A DNA stretch of 64,000 nt. Origin: a virus (lineage: Duplodnaviria > Caudoviricetes). Made by a program: the position numbers and the translations under genes. This document shows positions 4,803 through 61,050 of this stretch, piece by piece. The stretch is from the IMG/VR virus record IMGVR_UViG_3300036985_003045; one strand, 5' to 3'. Below the pieces are notes generated by a model. It saw nothing but the letters and a program-made list of their open reading frames with translations, had not been told where the DNA came from and ran no database searches. The number at the start of each line of letters is the position of its first letter. Positions within the stretch are counted from its first letter, which is position 1.

Positions 4803-4810
4803 TATTTATT
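4803..4810 (-). promoter_or_regulatory. Possible late promoter variant (AATAAATA)
   Basis: One mismatch to the T4 late consensus TATAAATA, just upstream of 3725..4771. Confidence 0.35.
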
Positions 4811-5846
4811 AAAAGAAATCCTCGAGTGTAGATTCTTTTTGTTTAATACCTTTATTCCAATAATCAAACCTATGATTTACTGGTGCAAGATGTACAGACT
4901 TTGGTTTTTCCATACATGTTTGCATGAAATCAATTGGACTATATGTATAGAATTGTTCAGGCCATTTAAAAACTGACCAGTTATTTCTGTTGCACATTTC
5001 TATTAATGCATCGGTAAAATATTGTCTTATGCTATCTCTTTCTTGTCTAGAACCAAAGAATGGAGTACCTTTATACCAACCTGTTTTAGGCAATTTACGT
5101 GTCTCATCTTCTATAGGTAAAGGTAACACAACTTCAATATTCTTAATGTTTAATACCTTTATTTGATTCTCATATTCAGATACTAAATCATCTACATATT
5201 GGGTTGGGTTTTCTTCTCGACAGATATGATGTCTAATATCAATATTGCCATAATAACATGTAAGATGAGTAAGGTTTTCTTTTAATCCTGGCATGAAATC
5301 ATCTATTTCTTTCGTAATAGTTTTTCTTAATACACCTGCTAGAGTTCTACCATCTTTACGAAATGTCATATATCCAGGTTGATATGCAGAAAATGAATGA
5401 CTATCACCTAATACTAATTTAGTTGTAACCACAGGATGCAACATTTCAGGTATAGAGTTACAAACATTTGATAATGCATCCCAATCTATGGCAGACCAAT
5501 ATTCATCTGCATTCTTAAGTCGATTCTTACATAGTCTACCATAATCAGGCATAGGAATATCAAGAGATACTAATGACTTATTCTTATGTGTTAGGATTCG
5601 TTCGAAGAAGACAGCATTTTCTTTAGTTGCTCCTCCAAAGAGATTAAGAGTTTCTCCATCTTGTTCCATAGAATGATATAAAAATATAGTATCATAATCA
5701 TCCCATGACTCTCCATGGAGAACATCGATCTCAATATTCAAGGCATCTTCAAGTTGGCATTTTCTGAGCATAGCCCAACCAAATTTATGAGAATATTGAG
5801 ATGATGTTAATTTACCAGGTAATAAATCTAAAGCATATTTTTTCAT
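4809..5846 (-). CDS. Putative DNA-modifying transferase (BGT-like N-domain plus SGNH-like GDSH domain)
   Basis: DYDTIF...LNLFGG...SLDIPMPDY recalls the T4 beta-glucosyltransferase N-lobe. LVLGDSH and GNID..H motifs; C-terminal STLEDFF. Confidence 0.5.
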   Translation of the reverse strand: MKKYALDLLPGKLTSSQYSHKFGWAMLRKCQLEDALNIEIDVLHGESWDDYDTIFLYHSMEQDGETLNLFGGATKENAVFFERILTHKNKSLVSLDIPMPDYGRLCKNRLKNADEYWSAIDWDALSNVCNSIPEMLHPVVTTKLVLGDSHSFSAYQPGYMTFRKDGRTLAGVLRKTITKEIDDFMPGLKENLTHLTCYYGNIDIRHHICREENPTQYVDDLVSEYENQIKVLNIKNIEVVLPLPIEDETRKLPKTGWYKGTPFFGSRQERDSIRQYFTDALIEMCNRNNWSVFKWPEQFYTYSPIDFMQTCMEKPKSVHLAPVNHRFDYWNKGIKQKESTLEDFF

Positions 5847-7012
5847 TAAAAGAAGGAGTCCAAGGTTGCAGTATTTTGTTTATTATATACTAATTGCTCC
5901 GCTTTGTACAACTCTTTTTCAATATCAATAGTTCCTATTCTTGCTACTTTGCGGCGTTCAATAGCTTTTGTATCATTGCGAATCTTGCAAAAGATCCCAT
6001 ACTGGCACATGCCGACCTCCGAACCGTACGTCATCATCTCAGTCTGGTCTTTGCTTAGAATCTTATTATTGTTATGATCAAGTACATTATGGAAATGTTC
6101 ATGGATCTTAATATCACCGAACCCAAAGAACTTCTGATTATGCCTGAACCATACAACTAAATCTCCATTTGTTATTTCCTTTGATGATGCCTTTGGGAAT
6201 AGTAACTTAAGAGTGTATTGCGCTCCAGGACCGGGTTTAACAAAGTTCTCATCATTATCCCATGATAGTTTTGGATTCACTGAATTAGAAGTAGTACAAT
6301 GGTATCCATAATAAGATCCAATACCTTCAATCTCAGTTAATATTTTAAAAGTATTAGAAGCAGCACCTGATTGTTGCATTCTATTAAAGAATCCTTGTTC
6401 TCCTAATCCTGCTACCCAATCCATGATATTACCTGGATGTACTTTATCTGCATTAGGTCCAAATCTTTGTAACTGATACTTGTTCGCTGCACCAAATAAA
6501 GAAGTACGTAACTCAGTTGAACCATAAATTGGTAACTTAATTGATGCTGCTAACTCTAGATTCTTCCGTACCCGGGCACGCTCACCTGTGGTAAAATAGT
6601 TCTCAAAATCAACATGTGCAGTTTGTGGATCATTATTTCTAGTAGCAATCTGATGGATACCTCTAGCTCCATAAAAATGCGAGATGATTGTATTACCAAT
6701 CTTATTATGAACCGAGAGTTTATCATCAGGTAATGATACTATATTCTTCATAATGTATACCATACGATCATCACAGGTAATCATTGGATGGAAGTACTCA
6801 GTATCTGGATTTAATGCATACTCTGTATATTCATACTTTTCTGTTAATCCATATTGCCATTCAGTTCTTTTATTAACCTGTTCAACAAAATATTTAAAAT
6901 CAAGAAACTTCTCAACATCACATAAAGAAAAATACTTTACTAAAGGATAATCAACATTATTAGATACAAAGTTATTAGCTTCTATATACTCTTTACCTAC
7001 AGCATCTATCAT
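5846..7012 (-). CDS. aGPT-Pplase / 5-hmdU-DNA-kinase-helical-domain-like DNA base hypermodification enzyme
   Basis: DDR..YI..NI, GIGSYYGYH, PGPGA and EVGMCQY motifs; C-terminal ATLDSFF. Confidence 0.6.
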   Translation of the reverse strand: MIDAVGKEYIEANNFVSNNVDYPLVKYFSLCDVEKFLDFKYFVEQVNKRTEWQYGLTEKYEYTEYALNPDTEYFHPMITCDDRMVYIMKNIVSLPDDKLSVHNKIGNTIISHFYGARGIHQIATRNNDPQTAHVDFENYFTTGERARVRKNLELAASIKLPIYGSTELRTSLFGAANKYQLQRFGPNADKVHPGNIMDWVAGLGEQGFFNRMQQSGAASNTFKILTEIEGIGSYYGYHCTTSNSVNPKLSWDNDENFVKPGPGAQYTLKLLFPKASSKEITNGDLVVWFRHNQKFFGFGDIKIHEHFHNVLDHNNNKILSKDQTEMMTYGSEVGMCQYGIFCKIRNDTKAIERRKVARIGTIDIEKELYKAEQLVYNKQNTATLDSFF

Positions 7013-7404
7013 TTAGATTCCCATTCAGTATGGCGAACATTTTCCTTTTCAGTTAAATCATGTTGCATGTACACAATATTAATATGTGGAACTATTTTTT
7101 TAATCATTTCTATTTGTATTGGATCATCTTCAAAATGAATGCCTATTTTATATCCTTGCTCTTCTAATTTAATAATAGTATTTCCCTTATGAATACCGGA
7201 AGACTCTCTACTCTTATTATCAAAAGACAATTCATTAAACATTACTTTGTTATGAATACCTTTTTTGGTAAGCATGCCAAGAGTTTCTTCTGATTCTTCA
7301 AAAGATCTACCGGTTATAATAATATCGTTAAGACCGGGGTAAACACCTCCATATTTACCCATGTATATGACACCATCTATATCAAAAGTATTAATATTAT
7401 TCAT
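7009..7404 (-). CDS. HAD-superfamily phosphatase
   Basis: FDIDGV, ITGRS and FEDD motifs. Confidence 0.85.
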   Translation of the reverse strand: MNNINTFDIDGVIYMGKYGGVYPGLNDIIITGRSFEESEETLGMLTKKGIHNKVMFNELSFDNKSRESSGIHKGNTIIKLEEQGYKIGIHFEDDPIQIEMIKKIVPHINIVYMQHDLTEKENVRHTEWESK

Positions 7405-8674
7405 AATCTGTTTGACCTGCTTGGAAAGTATACGGTAAATCCTTTGCTATAGGTTTATTTTCTATTAATTGAGGTTTAGTTAACTCAGTCAATATTCGTC
7501 TTGCTAAGGCGTCACACTCAAACTTTGCATCTTCTGTTTTCAATTGCAAAGGCGGAGTTTTTTGAGTCCATGCTGAAGGACCTCTTAAGAATCCAACGAT
7601 ACCCATTTCAGAAGCAACTTTACAAAATCTAATTGCCGATATAACTACACCACCAGAGTTTGGACTATCTTGTACAGATAATCTAGCAGTTAATTCATAT
7701 CGAGCTCCGCCAAAACCATAACCAATAATATCAATATTACATACTTTATTATCAGAACCTACATAAGTACCACCTGGTTTTTGTTGAACAGTTAATGAAG
7801 GACCTGCATATAATGTCATACCTGAATATGGTTCATCACGTACAATATTCTGACCTTTCAAAACATTCTCTTTTGAGATATGTTTATTATGTAATCTTTC
7901 TTGCTTTGCCATATTCAAGAAGTCAGTATTAGCAGTTCTTCCTGTACGGATATGCTCTTGACCTTGTGTAGAACCGCAGGCCATATTTAATTGAATATGT
8001 TGAGTTACTAATATACCTGAATCTATCATAGCACCTTGAAGAACTTCAGATAATCTAGAAGCACCCCAAGCAGATCTCATATCAGAACCAACAATTGTTA
8101 GACCTTTATCGATAAACTTCTGCTCAATAATCTGAGTTTCTTTAGTGGCAATAATAGTTGGGATACAATTAACAAAATGTACACCTGCTTCTAATGCTAC
8201 ATCAAGATAAAATCTAGTAGCCTTTTCTGAACCTACTGGAAGATAGTTAATAAGTACATCTACACCAGTTTTCTTAACAATCGATACGATATCATCGTAT
8301 GATTTTGCCGCTTCTGCACCAGTCCTAAATGAAACATTCTCTGGATAATCAAGCATATGCTCAGCAACACCATCAAGTTCAGGACCTGAAAATACTGTTG
8401 CATCTTTTGGAACACATGTATTATCTATTTCAGATACATGATCCATTGCGCAATTTGGTAAAGCTCTTAAAGCTTCAATTAAGGATTTATTTACTTTACG
8501 ACGATCGACATCAAATCCTACTACGAATTCCATATCTTCTGATGTATATCCTCCAATATCTGGATACATGAGTCCAACTTTATCGTGTGGATTTTGAATA
8601 TAGTATTGAACTCCTTCAACTAACGACTTAGCGCAATTACCTACGCCGATGATACCAACTTTAATTTTTGACAT
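7397..8674 (-). CDS. ino1: myo-inositol-1-phosphate synthase (actinobacterial/archaeal type)
   Basis: GIIGVGNCA Rossmann motif; NYLPVGSE, NTDFLNM, DSPNSGGVV and KTPP motifs. Confidence 0.92.
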   Translation of the reverse strand: MSKIKVGIIGVGNCAKSLVEGVQYYIQNPHDKVGLMYPDIGGYTSEDMEFVVGFDVDRRKVNKSLIEALRALPNCAMDHVSEIDNTCVPKDATVFSGPELDGVAEHMLDYPENVSFRTGAEAAKSYDDIVSIVKKTGVDVLINYLPVGSEKATRFYLDVALEAGVHFVNCIPTIIATKETQIIEQKFIDKGLTIVGSDMRSAWGASRLSEVLQGAMIDSGILVTQHIQLNMACGSTQGQEHIRTGRTANTDFLNMAKQERLHNKHISKENVLKGQNIVRDEPYSGMTLYAGPSLTVQQKPGGTYVGSDNKVCNIDIIGYGFGGARYELTARLSVQDSPNSGGVVISAIRFCKVASEMGIVGFLRGPSAWTQKTPPLQLKTEDAKFECDALARRILTELTKPQLIENKPIAKDLPYTFQAGQTDYE

Positions 8675-8749
8675 TTTTATTTTCCTTACATTTCAGTTTT
8701 AAGACAATTGGTCCCACTTTGGGGAGTAGGTCTATCTAGTTATAACAAT

Positions 8750-9208
8750 TTAATGCATTAATAAATTATATTGTACTCCGGCTTCTTTGAACATATTTTC
8801 AGTGTCAACCCAAGAATCCTGCCAGTTATCTGGAACTTTCTTATCTCCAGTCCACATAACTACTCTTTTTACTCCAACTTGAATAATACCCTTTGCGCAT
8901 TCAGAACAAACTGGTAATCCATACACATATAATGTAGATCCATTTAGTGATACTCCATTAAATGTGGCATTATATATTAGATTCATTTCTGAATGTACAA
9001 CTAATTTATACTTGGTTGGTTTATGCTCATATCTTTCTACTGCATCTAGGATTCCACGTGGGAATCCATTATATCCAGTAGAAATAATATTCTTTTTGAT
9101 AGGATCTACTGCTATAGAACCTACTTTAGTTGATGGATCTTTACTCCAATTAGAAACGTTTTTAGCCATTTCTAAGAACCGTATATCCCATTTAGTAATA
9201 TCAGACAT
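8750..9208 (-). CDS. cd: dCMP deaminase
   Basis: HSEMN and PVCSECAK zinc motifs; SKDPSTKVG. Confidence 0.92.
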   Translation of the reverse strand: MSDITKWDIRFLEMAKNVSNWSKDPSTKVGSIAVDPIKKNIISTGYNGFPRGILDAVERYEHKPTKYKLVVHSEMNLIYNATFNGVSLNGSTLYVYGLPVCSECAKGIIQVGVKRVVMWTGDKKVPDNWQDSWVDTENMFKEAGVQYNLLMH

Positions 9209-9237
9209 CTTTTATATAAGTTAGTTATAATAGATCT

Positions 9238-9266
9238 ATTATATCATAGTTTCTAGAAATGTAAAC
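9238..9266 (-). promoter_or_regulatory. Early (sigma70-type) promoter GTTTAC-N17-TATAAT
   Basis: Matches the T4 early consensus. Placed to drive dCMP deaminase, ino1, HAD and the two transferases. Confidence 0.8.
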
Positions 9267-9268
9267 AT

Positions 9269-9916
9269 TTATTTTATTAAGTGAAAATGTTTTTCATATA
9301 CATGCAAACTAGTGCAGTTCCACATAATAGTACCTACTTCTACATCAAGATCCTTAGCAAGTTTTTTCAAAACATATTCTTGCCAATAGTAATCATTCTT
9401 ATATCCAAACACGACATCATTTGATCTCATTTGTACATTAGCATGGAGTTTACCATCTCTAATCATATAACCTACAGCATTAGTGCAGATGAAATCAGAC
9501 ATACCATGTTTATTATAATCAGTCCAAATAGAAGGTCTATTATAAACCATAGTAGCACGTCTAGAGAAAGGATTCTGTTTCAATTCATTTAATACATTTT
9601 TATATTGGTAACCATTCTCTTCAGAGAAGATTAAGTATCCATAGTTACTATTAATACATCCACCTCCACCAGAAATTGCTAACCAGATAGCTGGAGTTTC
9701 ACCGGGTATATCATGTACATTTAAAGATTGAGATTCATACCATTCAACTTCGCGTTTAGCATAATCAGTATTTAATGTACCAAAAATTACAGGTTCATCT
9801 GCATTAAAAGATGCACCCATAATCTCAAGCATTTTACAACCAGTTTTATCGATTACAAAATCAGCATGCATTAATTTATATAAGAACTCTTTTCTTATAT
9901 CTTTAACATTAAGCAT
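9269..9916 (-). CDS. gp42: dCMP hydroxymethylase (T4 gp42-like)
   Basis: Close resemblance to T4 gp42 (DKTG, DIPGETP.IW, SDFICTN, MRSNDVVFGYKND). The terminal Asp corresponds to the dCMP-specifying D179. Confidence 0.9.
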   Translation of the reverse strand: MLNVKDIRKEFLYKLMHADFVIDKTGCKMLEIMGASFNADEPVIFGTLNTDYAKREVEWYESQSLNVHDIPGETPAIWLAISGGGGCINSNYGYLIFSEENGYQYKNVLNELKQNPFSRRATMVYNRPSIWTDYNKHGMSDFICTNAVGYMIRDGKLHANVQMRSNDVVFGYKNDYYWQEYVLKKLAKDLDVEVGTIMWNCTSLHVYEKHFHLIK

Positions 9917-10352
9917 TTTTAGAACCTCTTTTTACTGGAATTTCTTCTGCTTTTCCATTAAAATCAACAATAATTACCGGTTCAACTCTAAATGTAGTGG
10001 GAATTAATGGCGAAGTTGAATCATTAGGTTTATTAAAGATATCGCGATCTGGTCTTTGACCTGGGACTTGGCCACGCATATACGCAGCAAGAAATGATGT
10101 ATAGTTAATAAGATCTAATGCAGAATCTTCGACTGATTCATAATTGACTTTACCACCTGCTTCCATAGTTTCAAGTACTGATACCATTCTTAGATACTTG
10201 CCATTAATAGTATCAAGAATAGACCACACACCATGAACATAATAGTCTGCTTGTTGAACTCTAGAAACTGTGTTATTATAATCCTGGCCTTTTTTCTCCT
10301 GAATTTCTGCAGCTTCTAATAAAATATTTGCTGAAGGTCTTGTGTATGTCAT
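9909..10352 (-). CDS. Nucleotide-modification-associated domain 1 (DUF1599-like all-alpha NTP-PPase-like protein)
   Basis: EKKGQDYN...K.LR...ESVEDSALDLINY pattern. Confidence 0.7.
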   Translation of the reverse strand: MTYTRPSANILLEAAEIQEKKGQDYNNTVSRVQQADYYVHGVWSILDTINGKYLRMVSVLETMEAGGKVNYESVEDSALDLINYTSFLAAYMRGQVPGQRPDRDIFNKPNDSTSPLIPTTFRVEPVIIVDFNGKAEEIPVKRGSKNA

Positions 10353-11834: not shown

Positions 11835-12236
11835 TTAATCAAACACCTGTGCAAACAATCCAACATTGTCAACATGGGTAGGGGCAGTCCAACCTTCAGG
11901 TTTTAGTAAATCCGGAAGTCCCCATGGATTAGGTCGACCTTCTTTAATACCAACTTGTTTTGCTAAATTAGCATCTAATACTCTATTCCATGCAGTATAT
12001 GCATCTACTTCATATGAATCTAAAGTACCAATAGCAAATACAACTAAATCTATTAGAGCATCAACTGCATCATCGGCTGTTTTAGCTTCTTTTAACTCAT
12101 CCAATTCTTCTTGTAAACAACCTATACGGAATGACAAAAACTTAAGAAGTTTGTCATTATCAAAGTTTCTAACAACTTCATTAACACCAAAACCTTCATG
12201 CATATTTGCAATATCATTTACCCAATTATTACTCAT
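11835..12236 (-). CDS. MazG/PRA-PH-family NTP pyrophosphohydrolase (candidate dCTPase/dUTPase)
   Basis: EELDE...DALIDLVVFAIG, ANLAK and DLLKPEGW motifs. Confidence 0.8.
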   Translation of the reverse strand: MSNNWVNDIANMHEGFGVNEVVRNFDNDKLLKFLSFRIGCLQEELDELKEAKTADDAVDALIDLVVFAIGTLDSYEVDAYTAWNRVLDANLAKQVGIKEGRPNPWGLPDLLKPEGWTAPTHVDNVGLFAQVFD

Positions 12237-15106: not shown

Positions 15107-15664
15107 TTATGGATTATTTTTAGAATGCGGTACATCGAATACAAAGGTAATTCTTATACAATCACCTAAGTTTTCTGTTCCATGTTCTAACTTATTATTA
15201 AACCAAAGTAATGTTCCAGGTTCTACAATAACAGACTCATCTCCTACTGAATATCGATAAGTTCCTTGAATTGATAAATGATACCTATCTCTTGTAAGAT
15301 AATAATCTCCAATATCAATATGTTTGCCTACAATACCTCCAATAGGTAAAGATAGAAATCCACATCGACTATGGGATTTAAAATGTCGTTTCAAAAATCC
15401 TACAATTTCAGTATGTCTTTTATATGCAGGAGTCTCTATACAGATATCTGTATCGCCAACATATTGATCAAGGTTTTCTACTCCGCCCATTACTAATTGA
15501 AGTACTCCTGCTTGAATTTCTGGAAAACCTCTATCAAGCATAGACATTGATCCTTCTAACGTCTTTTGAGCACCCCAATCATTTGGGTATTTTTCTAATT
15601 GTTTTAATATCTTTGAGACATTAATTCCAGTTTTGATTATTCTAATATTATCCAAAGAAGTCAT
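15107..15664 (-). CDS. Aspartyl/asparaginyl beta-hydroxylase-like 2OG-Fe(II) oxygenase
   Basis: HxD (KHIDIG), RYHLSI and distal H (NKLEHG). Confidence 0.75.
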   Translation of the reverse strand: MTSLDNIRIIKTGINVSKILKQLEKYPNDWGAQKTLEGSMSMLDRGFPEIQAGVLQLVMGGVENLDQYVGDTDICIETPAYKRHTEIVGFLKRHFKSHSRCGFLSLPIGGIVGKHIDIGDYYLTRDRYHLSIQGTYRYSVGDESVIVEPGTLLWFNNKLEHGTENLGDCIRITFVFDVPHSKNNP

Positions 15665-18152
15665 CCAAGTTTGCCGAGTTATTTAATTTCCAACCAATAG
15701 GTTCAAGCATAATTTGCAAAGGGTTTATAAATACTTTTTCAAATTGTGTATCATAATCAATATATTTTTCTAATCCAAATTCTTCCGGTATTTTATCTTT
15801 GATGGATATTACATTTTGATTAATGGGATTTGGAGTTCTCAAGAATACTACTTTAACTTTATCACTATCAAGTATTTTTTCATACGTCTTTGATAGTTTA
15901 TATTTGTCTATTAAATGATTATACCAAAGAGCTCCGCGTACATGCATGGGAGTACCTTTAGCAAATACATTAGTCTTATCACTAAACTTCTTAAGACCAT
16001 TAATACCTGAAGGTCGACCGATACTTGCTGAGGCAAGAGATTCAAATTCAATTTTAAAGTCATTGACATACTTATTGATTTGATCTTGATCACCATCCAA
16101 TATAATATTCAATGAGTCTTTTAGTTTTTTCCTACATACCTGAGGTGTAGAAGACTTAACTAGTTCTAAACCGGTTACTTTTAGTTTAGGTTCTGCATAT
16201 TGAACACCTTCAGAATTATACACTCGAAGAAAGTATCTTTTCTTGGCTACAAATACACCTACATCGGCTAGTACTTCACGCTTCATTTTCATTTTCTGTT
16301 CATAGGCATTCATATAGTCTGCCATTTTTATATATGAACGATCAATTAATGGTTCAACTATTTTAGCACAAAATGTATCCATGAATGCTATCTTTTGATC
16401 GACAGATTTATCTTTACATACAGATTCTACAACTGCTTCTAAAGTTACATAATTAGAATCTGTATCACCGGCAATAACATATTGGATATCTTCAGTTTTA
16501 TTTGCTTTATTAAAGTACTCATCCAACATAATAGCATTCCATCTATTGGATAACTGACCTGATAGCGTAATACTTTCTGCCATTCTTAAGTCATAATACC
16601 TGAACCATGAATTACCTATTGCGCCATACACACTGTTCAATGCTTCTTTTACTGCTAATTGCATAGCATTAGAGGAACTTTGAGCATTCTGATATTCTTT
16701 ATTGTACTTATCAGATTCAAGTAACTGCTCATACTTAAGCATTTCATTTTTATAATTACTACGGTCGGCATATACCTCTTCCATAATTTCAGGTAGGAAG
16801 CCACGAACATCTCGACGATAACACCAACCATTTGCAGTTAGAGATAAATTCTGCTCTTTAATATAGAAATTATCAAATGACTTTGATAATAGTTCATCTA
16901 CAGTACAAGGGATTCTAGTATCAGTAAGAGTCTCAGGACTAATATTGTATTGCATAATCAAATGTGGATATAGAGATGCCAAATCGAATGATGCAATGTA
17001 CTTATGCTTACCTACTACTGGAACTTGAACATATGCACCTTCATACTTACCAGTTTTGATTGAATTCTTCTTTGGTGGTATAACAATGTTCTTATTCTTT
17101 AATCGATTATAAATGATTGAGTCCCACATATTTACTGGTCCATACACTTCATCTAGATTGATTTTAGAATAATATGCAAGTGATACCGCAATCTGAATCA
17201 GTTTAAGTTTTTCATCTAACTTATCGACAAGTCTAACGTCATGTCTATTATAGTCTACAAATAAAGACCAATCTTTTGTATAAAAGTCTTTGAATGAATT
17301 ATAAGGATTTTCAAGTTTCTTTTCACCAAGAACTGTATTGGCAACAGTATCAAGTTTCATATCATCTACTTGAATTTTACCAAACTTAGCAAATAGTTCT
17401 TTATAATCGAGCATGGCAATGCCCTCGATATTATAACCTATCTTTTCATTACCATTCTGATCTTTATACAATCGTTCACGAACGCGACCCCAAGGAGATA
17501 GTTTATTAATGATTTGATCATCTATAACTCTTGACATTCTACGAATTAGATATGGAAAATCATATCCATTTGTATTCCAACCAGTTACAATATCAGGATA
17601 GTTTAGAGTCCAATGAGTCATGAACTCACGTAATAAATGTGCTTCACTTTGGCATTTAATATATGGACCATCATCATTTACCTTGTCATAAGGTCTTGTA
17701 CCAAAGGTTACGATATCAGTCGAATTTCTATTCTTTACTGATATAAGTGTGATCTCTTCTATAGGATCTTTAATCACCTCATCAATACTTAGACCATGTT
17801 CAGTAGTAGTCTCAATATCAATAGTTGTGATATTCATTACTGATTGGTCATATTCTATTTCACCTGGATAATATTCAGATATGAATTGCTTTGTGAAGTC
17901 TTGCATCCCATATATTTTGAAGTTCTCTACTTCACCATAACTTTTGATAAACTCTTTAGTGTCATGGATACTACCAGGTTGGATTTCACCTACATATTCA
18001 TTAGTAAGAGTCTTCCATTTGGTTGGAGTCTTGGATGAGACAAATAAGGTAGGTTTGAAGTCAACCTTGGTATGGATTCGTTTGCCATCTTCATAACCTC
18101 GAAGTAAGATGTTATTAGATACTTGTAGTACACTTGTATAGAATTTAGACAT
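15648..18152 (-). CDS. gp43: Family B DNA polymerase
   Basis: DIET exonuclease motif, FDLASLYPH, K.ALNSVYG, GDTDS; C-terminal NLDDFFG clamp motif. Confidence 0.97.
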   Translation of the reverse strand: MSKFYTSVLQVSNNILLRGYEDGKRIHTKVDFKPTLFVSSKTPTKWKTLTNEYVGEIQPGSIHDTKEFIKSYGEVENFKIYGMQDFTKQFISEYYPGEIEYDQSVMNITTIDIETTTEHGLSIDEVIKDPIEEITLISVKNRNSTDIVTFGTRPYDKVNDDGPYIKCQSEAHLLREFMTHWTLNYPDIVTGWNTNGYDFPYLIRRMSRVIDDQIINKLSPWGRVRERLYKDQNGNEKIGYNIEGIAMLDYKELFAKFGKIQVDDMKLDTVANTVLGEKKLENPYNSFKDFYTKDWSLFVDYNRHDVRLVDKLDEKLKLIQIAVSLAYYSKINLDEVYGPVNMWDSIIYNRLKNKNIVIPPKKNSIKTGKYEGAYVQVPVVGKHKYIASFDLASLYPHLIMQYNISPETLTDTRIPCTVDELLSKSFDNFYIKEQNLSLTANGWCYRRDVRGFLPEIMEEVYADRSNYKNEMLKYEQLLESDKYNKEYQNAQSSSNAMQLAVKEALNSVYGAIGNSWFRYYDLRMAESITLSGQLSNRWNAIMLDEYFNKANKTEDIQYVIAGDTDSNYVTLEAVVESVCKDKSVDQKIAFMDTFCAKIVEPLIDRSYIKMADYMNAYEQKMKMKREVLADVGVFVAKKRYFLRVYNSEGVQYAEPKLKVTGLELVKSSTPQVCRKKLKDSLNIILDGDQDQINKYVNDFKIEFESLASASIGRPSGINGLKKFSDKTNVFAKGTPMHVRGALWYNHLIDKYKLSKTYEKILDSDKVKVVFLRTPNPINQNVISIKDKIPEEFGLEKYIDYDTQFEKVFINPLQIMLEPIGWKLNNSANLDDFFG

Positions 18153-18711
18153 GTTTTCCCTTAATCAACATCATTACATCATAACAGATATCGTGGACTG
18201 GATGGTGCTTGATTACTTTATCTTTACTAAAGTCTTCAACTTCGCAATATCCATTGGATGAACCATACATAATATCAATTGCAGTTCTAAGATCTCTATA
18301 GTTATTATATCTCATAATTGGTTCGGTGGATACTGCTTTAGATAAACTATCAAACATTGGTTGGTCCATTGATCCTCTAACCCAGATGGTTTGATTGTCT
18401 GGATTTGGGAACATGTTAATATAGTCTTTTACTTTTTGAATAGCTTCTTCAGCTTTTAGGTCGTCGGGTTTTGGATGCAGACTAATATCTTGGAGATATT
18501 TGTGCTGCTTAGACCACCATTCTAGAGTACCTTTGTCCATTACTCTATTAAGGCGTTTGACTTGATCTTTGACATCAAGTTTTAGGAACAAAGTTCTGTT
18601 CAATAGTTTATCATAATCTAACTCTTCAGTTGGATCAAAATAAACTATAGCAACAGATAATACGACAGAGTTGGATTCAACTCCCAAACTTTCTAAATCA
18701 AAACAATACAT
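18145..18711 (-). CDS. dexA: DexA-like 3'-5' exonuclease
   Basis: FDLESLG, WVRGSMD, YRDLRT and H...HD motifs of the DEDDh family. Confidence 0.75.
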   Translation of the reverse strand: MYCFDLESLGVESNSVVLSVAIVYFDPTEELDYDKLLNRTLFLKLDVKDQVKRLNRVMDKGTLEWWSKQHKYLQDISLHPKPDDLKAEEAIQKVKDYINMFPNPDNQTIWVRGSMDQPMFDSLSKAVSTEPIMRYNNYRDLRTAIDIMYGSSNGYCEVEDFSKDKVIKHHPVHDICYDVMMLIKGKHV

Positions 18712-18958
18712 TTCACCTCCAATTTATATAGATCTATAGTATCATATAATCTATAAAATGTAAACCATTATAAAAATAATATTTAAGAATGTGTTGGAAC
18801 GTATAATCTACACACCATACTTTGGAATAGTTCAAATGCTTCCTTTGGTGTTGCTCCACTTCCTTGGCAATGGAATGAACCAAATTCGCAATACCATAAT
18901 CCATTTTTATAGTAAAATTTATGTCGCATTATTATAAGTTATTAATATTAAACATTAT

Positions 18959-20317
18959 TTATTTAATTTTAATAGAACTATCAGCAATTTCTTTATCATT
19001 TCTTACTTCAAGAAAGATAGGAAGGAATAATGACTCTTCACCATTTGTATTTTTGATTCTAGCATTATACTTTACAGATATGATTTTGCCATAATAATCT
19101 GATGGAGGAGCATTTCTTTGTTCATCAGTAAATCCAGAACCAACATATACCTTCAATAAACCATCGGCAGATTCACAGCATAATGAACCTATCATATCAG
19201 CATATTTACCAGTACCACCTATTACAGAAACTACTTTCAAATCACAATCCAATTCTGCTTTGAACTTGATTTGACCTTTGGATCTTTTGTTTTCCCATAA
19301 TGAATTAGGATCTTTAAGAATGATGCCTTCTTGATTTTCATCAAGATAGTTTTGAAATATTCTTTGAGTTTGTTCTAAAGAATCTACCTCAAAAGTTTCT
19401 ACTAAATCAAGTTTCCTTAATTTAAATTTACTTAATTTATAAATAAGATTTTTTAATTGCCTAAATCTATAACTGTAAGGTTGGTCACATTTACCAGCAA
19501 TGAAATCTTGATATGGAATTTGATCCCAAAGAGTAGCAAATACTCTATCTGCTTCTTCTTTTGATATAGTTCCCTTTACTGCTTTGTTTAGAATACCATT
19601 ACCAGTTTGACGATCACATATCTTACCGTTTGAATCTGTTTCAACTGTATCATATACCAGAAGTTCACCATCAAACACAGTGTCTTTATGATCTGCTAAT
19701 TCGATAAATTCTTCTTCAAGACTACCTAGTAATGAAATCTCTTTACCACTTCTAGAACGAAATTCAACCGTACCATAAAAATCATCATCGAATTTAACTA
19801 TGGCATTAAACCTCATACCATCTTCTTTCTTTTGAACTATGGCAGGGAATGTAATCTTATCAACTAATTTCTGCTCGAAAGGAGAACATAACATACAAGG
19901 GAACTCTGGTATTAGATTCTTCCAGACTTTATTGACGGTAGAGGTAGAAACACCGCACTTCAGATCTTTTTGGATAATTCTCTCGACGACCTTGGCGTTG
20001 CTCTCGGATACATTCTCAAGGACGAATACGAGGTGAGAAATAGCATTGTTGCCAGTGATCTTGCGAGATGCTAACTGTTCAACCAATTCTTGGATAGCCC
20101 AATCGAGGTTGTCGTCGCTCAGGAGAAATGTGCTTGGAGTGTACGATGGGATCTTGCGTTGGTAGAACTGAGTGAATGGATCGTTAGCAAGACGACATAC
20201 CTCTTTCAGAAGATCGTTATCCTTGTGCTTGGTAAGCAAATCGATCTTGAAGTTTCTAGAGTTGTTCGATTCGAGTTCTTGTAGTATTTCTAGTATCATT
20301 ATGTATGTTTCTCTCAA
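18959..20317 (-). CDS. gp30: ATP-dependent DNA ligase
   Basis: KEDGMR (KxDG), FDGEL, EGIILKD, VGSGF. Confidence 0.93.
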   Translation of the reverse strand: MRETYIMILEILQELESNNSRNFKIDLLTKHKDNDLLKEVCRLANDPFTQFYQRKIPSYTPSTFLLSDDNLDWAIQELVEQLASRKITGNNAISHLVFVLENVSESNAKVVERIIQKDLKCGVSTSTVNKVWKNLIPEFPCMLCSPFEQKLVDKITFPAIVQKKEDGMRFNAIVKFDDDFYGTVEFRSRSGKEISLLGSLEEEFIELADHKDTVFDGELLVYDTVETDSNGKICDRQTGNGILNKAVKGTISKEEADRVFATLWDQIPYQDFIAGKCDQPYSYRFRQLKNLIYKLSKFKLRKLDLVETFEVDSLEQTQRIFQNYLDENQEGIILKDPNSLWENKRSKGQIKFKAELDCDLKVVSVIGGTGKYADMIGSLCCESADGLLKVYVGSGFTDEQRNAPPSDYYGKIISVKYNARIKNTNGEESLFLPIFLEVRNDKEIADSSIKIK

Positions 20318-31383: not shown

Positions 31384-32160
31384 CTAAAACAAATCAGAGA
31401 AGAAGTTACCAATTGAATCTAACCAATCATCATCTTTCTCTACTGCTTCGGCATCAGGTATAGCAACTTCAACTAATACAATAGGAGCAATGATTGCAGC
31501 AGCCACGGCAGGTGCTACAGCAACAACTGGAACTGGTTTAGAAAATACATCTTCATCAATAGCACTTAATGCGATATCATAATGATGTTGTCTATCTTTC
31601 AAACCAATAGTACCACCATTAATTCTTTTAGTTAATGTAGTAAACTCACTAGAATCACAATATTGATTTAGTTTATTAGTTTGCCAGAAGAATGCACCTG
31701 AACAAATAGCACCCTCTAATGTTTCACAATATGCAACTGTTTCATCTAATGTTTTACCGATAGACTTTGCAAACTTTGAATAGTTATCTTTACCAGTTAA
31801 TTGAATACATCCTCGACCTCGGAATTTGAATCCTTCACCAGATGCTTCTGAACCATTACCCATTCTATCTGCATAAACCTTATTAGCAATCTTTTCTGGA
31901 TTACGATTATAAGGAGCAGCCATTGCAACAGAGATAAATCTTTTAGGCCAAACTTTACAAAGACCATCAGCAGAATAATTCAAGTTTTCTTTCAATGCAG
32001 TAAACTGAGCAGATTCGTGACCACATTGTGCCAAGAAAGCAGCAACTCTTTTTCTTGTATTAATTTCATACAATGGTAGAACTTTATTAAGAACCTCAAG
32101 TAGTGCTTCAGGTTGTTTATTGTTCGGGCATACCTTTTTCAGTTGATCTAATTTTATCAT
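31384..32160 (-). CDS. GH19 endolysin
   Basis: FLAQCGHESAQF, ENLNYSA, FRGRGCIQLTGKDNY, TKRINGG. Confidence 0.92.
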   Translation of the reverse strand: MIKLDQLKKVCPNNKQPEALLEVLNKVLPLYEINTRKRVAAFLAQCGHESAQFTALKENLNYSADGLCKVWPKRFISVAMAAPYNRNPEKIANKVYADRMGNGSEASGEGFKFRGRGCIQLTGKDNYSKFAKSIGKTLDETVAYCETLEGAICSGAFFWQTNKLNQYCDSSEFTTLTKRINGGTIGLKDRQHHYDIALSAIDEDVFSKPVPVVAVAPAVAAAIIAPIVLVEVAIPDAEAVEKDDDWLDSIGNFFSDLF

Positions 32161-35002: not shown

Positions 35003-35956
35003 CTATTTAAATTTACAAGAAGACATTATTTCAACCATTGCTGACATTGTATTTATCTCTTGATCTGCTACAAAGGCACTCTTATATTGATAGTCACCGA
35101 TAATAATAATTAATTGTGGAATACTTGATGGATCTAAAACATTTAATGCATTATCATATAAATGTCTGAATAATGATGATGCATCTGCATCTGCACTAGC
35201 AACCCATTTACGCACAGTAGTAAAATCTTTTTCTTTAAGACCTTTAATTAATTCTTTATAAGAGTCTGCAGATACATTGACAAAAATTCCAGAGTCAATT
35301 TTACCCGCAACAGAATATCTTTGCAATTCATTTAATATCCTTCTATAATCTGGAAAATGTTTTGTTACTAATTCAGCAACAACCTTTGGATCAAACTCAA
35401 TATTTTCTTGTTTCAAGATACGAGTTGCGCGTTTGAAAAACAATGCAGCCATTTCTTGTTTATCTTTAGGATCTATTTTAAAATCTATAATAGCACATCG
35501 TGAATGCAATGGATCTATAATACGATTTTTAAAATTGCAAGTAAATATGAACCGACAGTTATTGCTAAACTCCTCAATGAAAGATCTTAAGGCAGGTTGA
35601 ACTGAATCGGCATTCATATAATCTGCTTCATCAATAATGATAACCTTCTTTGCATCTGTTAGTGATACAGATGAGGCAAATTCTTTTACTGTAGTTCTAA
35701 GAGTATCAATTTTACGACCTTCGTCAGAACCATTGATCATTATATAGTCTGCCCCCACTTCATTACAAAGTGCTTTAGCTATAGTAGTTTTACCTACACC
35801 GGCAGAACCTGTTAATAAAAGCGTAGGTAATTCGCCTTGCTTAATATAATTATTGAATGTAGTTTTAATAGATTCAGGAAGAATACATTCACTGATGGTT
35901 TGCGGGCGGTATTTTTCTACCCACAAAAATTGATTGTCTTTAGATTCGATAGTCAT
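35003..35956 (-). CDS. gp44: Clamp loader large subunit
   Basis: WVEKYRP, GSAGVGKT, DEAD, SRC motifs. Confidence 0.96.
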   Translation of the reverse strand: MTIESKDNQFLWVEKYRPQTISECILPESIKTTFNNYIKQGELPTLLLTGSAGVGKTTIAKALCNEVGADYIMINGSDEGRKIDTLRTTVKEFASSVSLTDAKKVIIIDEADYMNADSVQPALRSFIEEFSNNCRFIFTCNFKNRIIDPLHSRCAIIDFKIDPKDKQEMAALFFKRATRILKQENIEFDPKVVAELVTKHFPDYRRILNELQRYSVAGKIDSGIFVNVSADSYKELIKGLKEKDFTTVRKWVASADADASSLFRHLYDNALNVLDPSSIPQLIIIIGDYQYKSAFVADQEINTMSAMVEIMSSCKFK

Positions 35957-36021: not shown

Positions 36022-36675
36022 TTAGAACGTACTATCAGCCTCAATTGCACAATAATAAACTAAATCACCAATTGTAGATTCAAATCTAGCTATTCTAGAA
36101 TGAATAGTTACTGTATAATTACCTTGTAGCATTTTTAGGTTTTCAATTTTAATATTAGCTTTAAAAGTTTTATCAGTAGTACCTACAATTGATTCATATA
36201 AATTGCTAGTAGCATTCTTTTTATCGCCGATAGTTAAAGTTAAACTAGTTCCATCGCCTACAATAGAAAGATCAGAAGCTTTTAAAACTCCTGCGGTTTT
36301 TTGAATAGCAGCAAATAATGATTCAGATAAGTCAAAATTAATATCTGCGGCAGGAAATACTATATCTTTACTTGGAGTTTTCAATAAAGATGCTTCGGCC
36401 GCAAAAAATTTAATTCTGTTATTTTTCTCTTGAATATTAACATACTTTTCTTCAAATTCTAATTCAGGATCAGTGAATAAAGAAATTGCTCCTAAAAATG
36501 AATTAAGGTCATATATACCAAATTCAATTGGAAATTGTTCTGCTACGGTTATACTGGAGGCCACAGTTTTGTTTACCGAAGTAGTCTTTAATCTATTACC
36601 AGGACTTAATAATAGATTGCTATTGATTGCCGCATAGTTTTTAAGGATATTAATTGTTTCTTTACTGATTTTCAT
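36022..36675 (-). CDS. gp45: Sliding clamp
   Basis: LKNYAAINSNL, FGIYDLNSFL, YCAIEADS. Confidence 0.93.
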   Translation of the reverse strand: MKISKETINILKNYAAINSNLLLSPGNRLKTTSVNKTVASSITVAEQFPIEFGIYDLNSFLGAISLFTDPELEFEEKYVNIQEKNNRIKFFAAEASLLKTPSKDIVFPAADINFDLSESLFAAIQKTAGVLKASDLSIVGDGTSLTLTIGDKKNATSNLYESIVGTTDKTFKANIKIENLKMLQGNYTVTIHSRIARFESTIGDLVYYCAIEADSTF

Positions 36676-43495: not shown

Positions 43496-44035
43496 TTAAT
43501 TATAAAAATCTTCTAAAGGTGAGTAAACTTCTTTTTTAATCTTTTCTTTTTTAGGTTTTTCAAATGATGAACCATCAAAGTTATTATACGCTTTCATGTA
43601 TTCGATATAGTTATTTGTGAAGTCTCCTTGTTCATCATGAGCTTGTAGTTCAGTAAGATCTAAAGCATTTGAGGTAAGTAGTTTGCTTCTAATGTATACT
43701 TGTCTTTTCTCTTTTGCTATTCTACGTAGAAATGCAAAATAAACAATTTGAGTAAAATAGGAAAAAGGATTATGTGTTTTATTCTCATCGAAATTATCAA
43801 TAACCTTTAAACAATTTTCGACTCCATCAAGTATCATATCCTCTTTAAATGAATATCCATTAAAGCTTCTAAGATTGGAGAAATTAGTAGCAATCTTAAA
43901 TATACATCCACCAATATATTCAGAGATTCTAGGTTTGGGAATTCCCTTTGATTCACAATCCTTAACTAAAAGGATACGTTCTTGCATAGCTACAAAGAAT
44001 TCTTCATTATTAATATAATTTAGTTTCTTACTCAT
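43496..44035 (-). CDS. gp55: Late transcription sigma factor
   Basis: YINNEEF, EDMILDGVENC, NPFSYFTQI; C-terminal PLEDFY clamp-like motif. Confidence 0.95.
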   Translation of the reverse strand: MSKKLNYINNEEFFVAMQERILLVKDCESKGIPKPRISEYIGGCIFKIATNFSNLRSFNGYSFKEDMILDGVENCLKVIDNFDENKTHNPFSYFTQIVYFAFLRRIAKEKRQVYIRSKLLTSNALDLTELQAHDEQGDFTNNYIEYMKAYNNFDGSSFEKPKKEKIKKEVYSPLEDFYN

Positions 44036-60069: not shown

Positions 60070-61050
60070 TTATCCCATGAACCAACTTAATGGAGCAGAT
60101 TTAGTCATTAGTTCATCTTCTAAATCTTTAATCTCATCAATTGCTTCTCTATATAGAGAATCACCATCTAGTGTAACACCACCCGGTAATTGAATACCGG
60201 AAAACTTTTTGATATTAGTTGCCCACATCTTTTTAAATAATGCAGTAGTATAATGTTTCAACCATAACTCTCCCCACATTCTAGGAGCAGTGACAGGATC
60301 TAAAGCACCATAACCATCAACCATTAGATATTGACCAATAAGAGCATCTGCTTGCCATTTAATATCAAGATATAGTTTGTTTGTAAATCTATTAAACCGA
60401 ATATCAGGTTTGGCATTAAGTTCAAAATCAAGCATTGACAAATGACTCATTACAGTTTTATAATAGATCATCGAGGTAGATGTTACATCATATAAATCGT
60501 GCAAACGTAATTGGTATTGCAAGTCAAACATATTCTTAGATGAAGATGCCTGTGCCATAGGAATAACTCTAGTCACACCATACAATAAATCAGGAAGTGT
60601 AATATATCTATTATCAAATACACCTTTAACTACTGGAGAAGTTGAACTTAATGTAGCAGAAATTATATCATTTGAAATAGTTTCTCCAGCAAGGAAATTA
60701 CCGGTTATATTAACTATAAGAAGAACATTTCCTGTAGATGTTCTTGATTCTGTTCTAGTACCTTCATCTAAAACTACAAATGCTGTAGCACCTGATGTTA
60801 CTCCAGTAACTTTAGTTGCATCACCAAAAGATTCAGCATTATTAGTTGTAAGATTTAACACAGAAGCAGTAATCATATATTTGGCATATACTTGTTCAAT
60901 ACCTTCTGGATGATATAATCTCCAATATTCTACTGCTTCATCAATACGATCTTCTAGTTGATCATCATCAACATTTATCTCAAGCACTGGTGCACCTAGT
61001 GCTCTCAAGGCATATTGTTTTAGACCTTCCCTTGTATTTACTGTTGCCAT
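60070..61050 (-). CDS. gp13: Neck protein
   Basis: LRALGAPVLEINV..DQLEDRIDEA, QLPGGVTLDG. Confidence 0.93.
   Translation of the reverse strand: MATVNTREGLKQYALRALGAPVLEINVDDDQLEDRIDEAVEYWRLYHPEGIEQVYAKYMITASVLNLTTNNAESFGDATKVTGVTSGATAFVVLDEGTRTESRTSTGNVLLIVNITGNFLAGETISNDIISATLSSTSPVVKGVFDNRYITLPDLLYGVTRVIPMAQASSSKNMFDLQYQLRLHDLYDVTSTSMIYYKTVMSHLSMLDFELNAKPDIRFNRFTNKLYLDIKWQADALIGQYLMVDGYGALDPVTAPRMWGELWLKHYTTALFKKMWATNIKKFSGIQLPGGVTLDGDSLYREAIDEIKDLEDELMTKSAPLSWFMG

Follow-up and report, generated by a model that had tools for sequence, protein, structure and literature searches.

In bacteriophage T4, the DNA polymerase gp43, the late sigma factor gp55, and gp33 end in interchangeable epitopes that bind the sliding clamp gp45, and the RB69 clamp has been crystallized with the C-terminal 11-mer of its polymerase (PMC2988020). 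Read from the T4 genome (NC_000866), two of these tails are ...KASLDFLFG for gp43 and ...SPSLDFLYEAND for gp55 (SLDFLYEAND). Here we consider a 64,000-nucleotide stretch of DNA, hereafter the window, from a T4-like phage of the Caudoviricetes (IMG/VR record IMGVR_UViG_3300036985_003045), in which two adjoining genes of a base-hypermodification cassette encode proteins, designated A and B, with C-termini of the same kind. We think it very likely that A and B are DNA-modifying enzymes tethered to the clamp. How phages modify nearly every target base soon after replication, ahead of host nucleases, is poorly understood, and the sole published link between modification and the replisome, an interaction of T4 alpha-glucosyltransferase with gp45 claimed by Sommer et al. 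2004 (as cited in PMC6024577), is disputed. A C-terminal clamp peptide is textbook knowledge for gp43, gp55, and gp33, which cannot be said of such a peptide on base-hypermodifying enzymes; a literature search combining clamp-binding motif, phage, and DNA modification returned no paper on such tails on hypermodification enzymes.

Enzyme A (345 residues; minus strand, 4809-5846) ends in ...KGIKQKESTLEDFF, and enzyme B (388 residues; minus strand, 5846-7012) ends in ...NKQNTATLDSFF. The predicted gp45-binding peptides, KESTLEDFF in A (minus strand, 4812-4838) and TATLDSFF in B (minus strand, 5849-5872), are short, hydrophobic, and acidic, and their motif ends at the very last residue. The B gene ends within the start of the A gene (stop and start codons overlap in TAATG), an arrangement that makes translational coupling of the pair probable. 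Two other proteins of this phage supply the reference epitopes: the family B DNA polymerase gp43 (minus strand, 15648-18152; phrog_262, E-value 1e-295), with the tail SANLDDFFG (15651-15677), and the late sigma factor gp55 (minus strand, 43496-44035; phrog_234, E-value 1e-48), with the tail SPLEDFYN (43499-43522). The proposed docking partner, the gp45 sliding clamp, is encoded at 36022-36675 (minus strand; phrog_223, E-value 3e-65; PF09116 on homologues, one of which is named "sliding clamp"), close to the gp44 clamp loader at 35003-35956 (minus strand; phrog_168, E-value 6e-125). A preliminary description of the locus had listed the four tails and placed gp45 at these positions; both open reading frames and all four endings are as it gave them, and the identities of gp43, gp55, and gp45 are borne out by the PHROGs and, for the clamp, Pfam assignments. 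Reduced to their cores, the tails read TLEDFF in A, TLDSFF in B, NLDDFFG in gp43, and PLEDFYN in gp55. Neither gp33 nor RNase H of this phage was seen within the 64-kb window.

Endings of this type are rare in the window. Among its 81 likely genes (20,419 residues), the core motif L[DE][DES]F[FY], which was drawn up with the four tails already in view, occurs four times, in gp43, gp55, A, and B, and every occurrence ends no more than one residue from the C-terminus; composition alone predicts 0.17 occurrences overall and 0.002 at C-termini. A motif fixed a priori from the two known clients alone (L[DE]DF[FY], with at most one mismatch) matches 11 of 20,147 positions, and the expected number of C-terminal matches among the 80 other proteins is 0.13, which gives a probability of 0.008 for two or more. 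In a ranking of 79 window proteins by how closely their tails resemble the gp43 and gp55 tails, the first and second places go to A and B. One could argue that chance or compositional convergence is at work, short hydrophobic-acidic C-termini being easy to generate in AT-rich phage genomes and the motif being only five residues long and in part defined after the four tails were seen. We give this explanation almost no credence, given the low C-terminal expectation under either form of the motif and, as described below, the retention of the tails across hundreds of homologues, their lineage-specific co-variation, and their loss in phages with a family A polymerase. A more permissive scan, extended to the 408 open reading frames of at least 30 residues in the window, found no further real gene with the motif. 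Its only borderline case, the reading frame at 60070-61050 (...APLSWFMG), is a head-tail adaptor and was rejected as an additional clamp client; the endolysin-like protein at 31384-32160 (...NFFSDLF) was also rejected, its tail not fitting the motif.

The preliminary description had named conservation of the motif among homologues as a check on its proposal, and the tail is indeed kept in most of them. Database searches returned 737 matches for the family of enzyme A and 269 for that of enzyme B, both of them large families of proteins from uncultured phages, and the A family is present on more than 570 viral contigs. A terminal phenylalanine is found in 67% of the 120 best A-family proteins and in 54% of the short B-family proteins, as against 7% of 1,100 background phage proteins; in B, F387 is invariant among close homologues. 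In the A family, the last conserved motif is followed by anywhere from 18 to 97 residues before the C-terminus is reached, and the tails of both proteins have low values of the predicted local distance difference test (pLDDT) in structural models. The variable length of the linker and the low confidence of the tail together fit a peptide held on a flexible leash. The tails of the two families do not have one fixed sequence; they come in flavors that are specific to lineages.

These flavors follow the polymerase. We compared the window with viral contigs and loci that bear homologues (labeled G and L, respectively), and within each phage whose polymerase was seen, the flavor of the A and B tails is that of its own polymerase; as judged from the sequences, the A and B tails track the polymerase tail of the same phage in at least seven lineages. 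In G003, the polymerase ends in SSLKAFF, A in ISLKNF, and B in NLSKYF. The corresponding tails of G002 are NSIVQF, NKIVTF, and KQIIQF, and two further proteins of that phage, an RNase H/FEN-type 5′-3′ exonuclease (KSIIQF) and a methyltransferase-domain protein encoded between A and B (NGIITF), are tailed as well. Phages of what we call the "SLF" lineage, in which gp43 is split, have a polymerase ending in IYSTSLF or IYASALF, A proteins ending in xSLF or xALF, and B proteins ending in EQxALF or SSCLF. In the Aeromonas phages 44RR2.8t and 25, the polymerase ends in NLFDMFDI, A of phage 25 in TLELFDI, a fused A-B protein of 44RR2.8t in SLDGLFAI, and gp33 (PF16805) in TLDFLM. The polymerase of G004 is not on the contig; there, A ends in NLLEF and B in DLLEF, and gp55 contains ...SLLTF.... 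Four further loci provide A and B tails: SSLIVF on both proteins in L169, SLLEF and GLLEF in L173, PLIEF and DLIVF in L171, and SLDSFFE and DLSTFLA in L167. Among the 24-35 genes of each of these four loci, no other such tail is found, save a borderline ...RLLEM in L173.

Permutation tests, run after related contigs had been collapsed, support the pairing. Across nine lineages, the tails of A and B reach a similarity score of 115, compared with 50 ± 13 for shuffled pairs, and none of 20,000 shuffles attains 115. For polymerase versus A and for polymerase versus B, each across five lineages, the true pairing outscores all others among the 120. Ranking tails by similarity to those of the clients gives a like result in G002 and in phage 25. 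The fused Aeromonas protein is instructive with regard to position: the tail that its A part would carry is replaced by a lysine-rich linker, and a single tail (...CSLDGLFAI) stands at the sole C-terminus.

Several observations concern the phages of this comparison in their own right. The A-B fusion, found in 44RR2.8t (L001 3977-6364) and UP87 (L003 3941-6358), is about 800 residues long and runs from A at its N-terminal end through the lysine-rich linker to B at its C-terminal end; its domains stand in the opposite order to the genes of the window. Aeromonas phage 25 (L002 1776-3957) is without B and encodes, upstream of A, a UDP-galactopyranose mutase and a 358-residue protein (phrog_14998, ...SCLDLIMA) that may be another clamp-tailed DNA transferase, perhaps with a furanose sugar as its substrate. 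In G002, the I[IV]xF tail is common to the polymerase, the exonuclease, A, B, and the methyltransferase-domain protein (L115 15192-16136, L115 17448-18164, L116 7912-8685), and a divergent gp45-like clamp gene (start MKLSATDITALK) adjoins the polymerase gene. The borderline tail of L173, a locus on a 395-kb contig, belongs to a GT4-type glycosyltransferase of the same cassette (18676-19968), whose ending, ...AIVRLLEM, is near the local SLLEF tails of A and B. An unannotated 147-residue protein that adjoins the gp41 helicase of G012 (L122 15653-16096) ends in ...KKINSLF, the polymerase-type tail of its lineage; on this sequence it is a candidate for a further clamp client, for example a helicase loader or a transcription co-activator. 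Most marine contigs of the A family (L085-L102 and many others) have a split gp43 (about 470 and 400 residues), as do phages 25 and 44RR2.8t, and the tail is on the second piece.

The presence of the tail also follows the type of replisome. A T4-type family B polymerase was found in 11 viral records, and all 11 have a tailed A. The four records with a family A polymerase all have an A without the tail: G009, a myovirus with a complete genome of 180 kb; G010, whose genome is likewise complete at 225 kb and lacks a family B polymerase; G017; and G020, a T7-like phage with a single-subunit RNA polymerase and a T7-type single-stranded-DNA-binding protein. Profile searches found no gp45-like protein in G009 or G020. 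By jackhmmer and profile search, gp45-like clamps were found in the window, in G002, and in the Aeromonas phages only, and the same searches found none in G003, G004, and G012, which are fragments or incomplete contigs. In contigs that lack a T4-type polymerase, B occurs in long forms (480-630 residues) with an additional domain at the C-terminus, and none of 11 such proteins has the tail.

The extra domain of these long forms (L023, L037, L044, L045, L079; P0171-P0189) ends in a Gly-basic-Tyr motif, and some of the proteins are fused to Methyltransf_21; the domain may be another way to anchor the enzyme on DNA. The single-stranded-DNA-binding protein of G020 (L145 15991-16539) has an acidic end with a terminal phenylalanine (...SSNDLDDF), reminiscent of the tail by which T7 gp2.5 binds the polymerase; this ending has no relation to the clamp tails, although it is easily mistaken for one.

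The distribution bears on the possibility that the shared peptide is recognized by a partner other than the clamp, such as another hub of the replisome, a chaperone, or a protease. Here, homology to T4 and RB69 is the sole basis for calling the polymerase tail a clamp epitope, and searches turned up no clamp in the "SLF" lineage, two points that leave some room for such a partner. Yet the same tail ends gp43, gp55, gp33, and the RNase H/FEN-type exonuclease, the common partner of which in T4 is gp45, and its loss coincides exactly with a family A polymerase and the lack of a detectable gp45. Since the "SLF" phages encode a gp44-type clamp loader, their gene content suggests that they encode a clamp of their own as well; a 214-residue open reading frame adjoining the clamp loader in G012 is without a family match. 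Structure prediction also places the tail of B on gp45. With the gp45 trimer and residues 345-388 of B as input, in three runs with three controls, the score was 0.59, all controls scored 0.00, the pLDDT of the partner was at least 53, and contacts agreed between runs to at least 66%. This result was graded as weak support: 58 of 80 solved complexes and 2 of 110 mismatched pairs score high enough to pass, but at scores of 0.60 or less only 7 of the 80 solved complexes passed, and both mismatches did. Because the RB69 clamp with its polymerase peptide is an already solved structure, the pass may in addition reflect memory, and we regard the predicted complex as weakly compatible with docking on the clamp and not as proof of it. 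Taking both sides together, we consider recognition by a different partner highly improbable.

What A and B are can be judged in part from their folds. The sole Pfam match of B is PF18723, HMUDK_hel ("helical domain of 5-hmdU DNA kinase," that is, a kinase of 5-hydroxymethyldeoxyuridine in DNA; residues 170-294, E-value 2.6e-11), a name that might suggest a DNA kinase; this assignment was rejected, for Pfam finds no P-loop kinase domain N-terminal to the helical one, and the model (pLDDT 91) is all-helical. In an exhaustive VIA-align search, the best structural match is 8z2m_A, the 5-phosphomethyl-deoxyuridine (5-PmdU) glycinyltransferase gp46 of phage PaMx11 (Z 9.3, root-mean-square deviation 4.2, 228 residues aligned), followed by a queuine-salvage enzyme and about 20 helix-hairpin-helix DNA glycosylases (Z 5-9), after which Z drops to 4.2. 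For B, Foldseek found nothing significant in the Protein Data Bank (PDB), a PDB search with a sequence profile came back empty, and no Pfam aGPT-Pplase model matches. Two residues, E332 and C336, do not vary among close relatives and may correspond to the published catalytic Cys/Glu pair. From its model, we judge B to be a transferase-like protein of the aGPT-Pplase kind that acts on DNA and flips bases.

Enzyme A (phrog_13881; pLDDT 90.7, with low confidence from about residue 333) consists, in its model, of an N-terminal alpha/beta domain, an SGNH/GDSL-hydrolase-like domain (residues 139-337), and the flexible C-terminal tail. The second domain has an SGNH fold, matching 7e16_A (Z 12.4), 4rsh_A (Z 12.2), and dozens of GDSL esterases and O-acetyltransferases. 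G147-D148-S149-H150 are invariant, as are G200, I202, and D203 of a GNID motif (200-203) in which N201 is nearly so, and H319; block V is not a clear DxxH. No Pfam family, the GDSL models included, matches A, which on its modeled structure is an SGNH-like enzyme and, like B, not a kinase. The preliminary description held that the tails argue for DNA as the substrate of both enzymes independently of gene context. For B, the glycinyltransferase- and glycosylase-like fold sustains that view on separate grounds.

The surrounding genes indicate the probable base. Beyond B lie, all on the minus strand, a small HAD-phosphatase-like protein (7009-7404, ending ...HTEWESK), a protein resembling myo-inositol-1-phosphate synthase (7397-8674, ending ...GQTDYE), a deoxycytidine monophosphate (dCMP) deaminase (8750-9208), and a gp42-like dCMP hydroxymethylase (9269-9916), all four of which would be expected to act on small molecules and none of which has the tail. 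The last of these, a thymidylate-synthase-like protein, is a close homologue of the T4 enzyme (E-value 3e-79) and keeps the cytosine-specifying aspartate (YKNDY), so that the base targeted by A and B is, from gene content, most likely hydroxymethylcytosine. A combination of A, B, the inositol-phosphate-synthase-like protein, and the small HAD-like protein recurs in T4-like contigs of up to 395 kb (L167, L169, L171, L173). The cassette of the window (4809-10352) points to a hydroxymethylcytosine hypermodification not previously described, possibly a cyclitol-based one. Two genes for MazG-like nucleotide pyrophosphohydrolases (9909-10352 and 11835-12236) flank the nucleotide-metabolism block; by analogy with T4 gp56, their products may clear canonical dCTP.

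We propose the following mechanism. A and B would be translationally coupled, DNA-acting enzymes of a cassette for the hypermodification of a hydroxymethylpyrimidine, most likely hydroxymethylcytosine, and each would carry, on a flexible linker, the gp45-binding peptide of its phage, the very epitope found at the ends of gp43 and gp55. Through it, either enzyme would dock on clamps loaded on replicating or newly replicated DNA, and docking should allow freshly incorporated hydroxymethyl bases to be modified processively and promptly. In other words, replication of the phage DNA and its chemical modification are most likely linked physically. The preliminary description went further and had the enzymes ride the clamp at the fork. 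Riding on the clamp is supported by conservation, by co-variation, and by the absence of the tail in phages with a family A polymerase; a position at the fork is indistinguishable from one on clamps left behind on newly copied DNA.

This last point leads to the alternative that the tails do bind gp45 but serve a purpose other than the replication-coupled modification of nascent DNA. Any loaded clamp, including one left over on the lagging strand or engaged in late transcription, could act as a one-dimensional track for the enzymes, or else the tails could compete with gp43, gp55, and gp33 and in this way time replication or late transcription. Such roles are plausible in so far as gp45 serves late transcription too, through shared and interchangeable binding sites (PMC2988020), and the sequence data do not fix where on the DNA a clamp-bound enzyme acts. 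The carriers of the tail argue the other way: it is found on catalytic folds of DNA enzymes inside a modification cassette, and other enzymes of the modification type have it too, namely the methyltransferase-domain protein of G002 and the protein encoded next to the UDP-galactopyranose mutase in phage 25, a pattern that fits access to substrate better. We consider a purpose of this other kind unlikely, though the least unlikely of the alternatives we have weighed.

A number of points weigh against clamp-tethered, replication-coupled modification and temper our confidence in it. Action at the fork is inseparable from action on clamps left on new DNA. The interaction of T4 alpha-glucosyltransferase with gp45 was not reproduced (bioRxiv 10.64898/2025.12.06.692756 = PMC13216743), and the T4 alpha- and beta-glucosyltransferases and Dam are without such a tail (NC_000866), which means that clamp tethering is no general requirement for modification. 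The lineages that we compared share ancestry, and their counts overstate independence. By crude BLOSUM similarity to the clients, the tail of the fused 44RR2.8t protein falls outside the six best. In the "SLF" lineage, gp55 ends differently (G[IM][YF]x[IL]) and does not match the polymerase tail, and the clamp was not found on the incomplete contigs of that lineage. Finally, the score of the predicted gp45-B complex is weak.

If clamp tethering is nonetheless correct, as we believe, a broader reading can be entertained, to which we give a distinctly smaller though real chance: the polymerase-type tail could be a portable address label for enzymes that work on polymeric DNA, one that drives replication-coupled hypermodification, and A, B, and the inositol-phosphate-synthase-like and HAD-like proteins could jointly make the hydroxymethylcytosine hypermodification to which the cassette points. 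In that scheme, A, as an SGNH-type enzyme, would activate or acylate the 5-hydroxymethyl group, and B, as a base-flipping enzyme resembling the aGPT-Pplases, would attach a cyclitol-derived moiety to that group.

The tail has practical consequences. A canonical clamp tail on hypermodification enzymes makes replication-coupled modification directly testable, and it offers a simple sequence rule for separating DNA-acting from metabolite-acting enzymes in uncharacterized cassettes. The tail further speaks for DNA as the substrate of A and B, whose families, of unknown function, count hundreds of members in aquatic T4-like phages; if the rule is true, it could serve to find DNA-modifying enzymes of unknown family straight from sequence.

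Comparison with described systems shows both the precedents and the differences. Among enzymes, B is closest to clade 2 of the aGPT-Pplase proteins (M6 gp51, ViI gp247, PaMx11 gp46; PMC8989533, PDB 8z2m), with which it shares the helix-hairpin-helix fold and a place in a hydroxymethylpyrimidine cassette, and to which its invariant glutamate and cysteine may be a further parallel; it differs in having no Pfam aGPT-Pplase match and no P-loop 5-hmdU DNA kinase found next to it, and its phage makes hydroxymethyl-dCMP, not hydroxymethyl-dUMP. The paper on those thymidine hypermodifications reports no clamp tails on its enzymes, and the word "clamp" is absent from it (PMC8989533). ParB-dependent phage thymine dioxygenases (PMC13229309) are likewise DNA-base-modifying enzymes that need a partner from a family of DNA-clamp-forming proteins, but the partner is ParB-like, there is no C-terminal peptide of the polymerase type, and the mechanism is unresolved. 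T4 alpha-glucosyltransferase stands for the same idea, a hydroxymethylcytosine-modifying enzyme proposed to couple to the replisome through the clamp; it has no gp43-type tail (it ends in ...EQFDIITK) and its interaction is disputed, whereas the window enzymes carry the canonical epitope, with comparative evidence behind it. The PIP box of eukaryotic DNMT1 and the bacterial beta-clamp motif QL[SD]LF are short linear motifs that tether DNA-modifying or DNA-processing enzymes to the replicative clamp. The xSLF and EQxALF tails of the "SLF" lineage resemble the beta-clamp motif, although the clamp family and the enzymes are different ones. A further precedent lies in the gp43, gp55, and gp33 epitopes of T4 and RB69, which like the tails of A and B are short, hydrophobic-acidic peptides at the extreme C-terminus, set on linkers of variable length and nearly identical between the clients of one phage. 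There, however, the carriers are replication and transcription proteins; here they are two enzymes of a base-hypermodification cassette, whose binding to the clamp is predicted.

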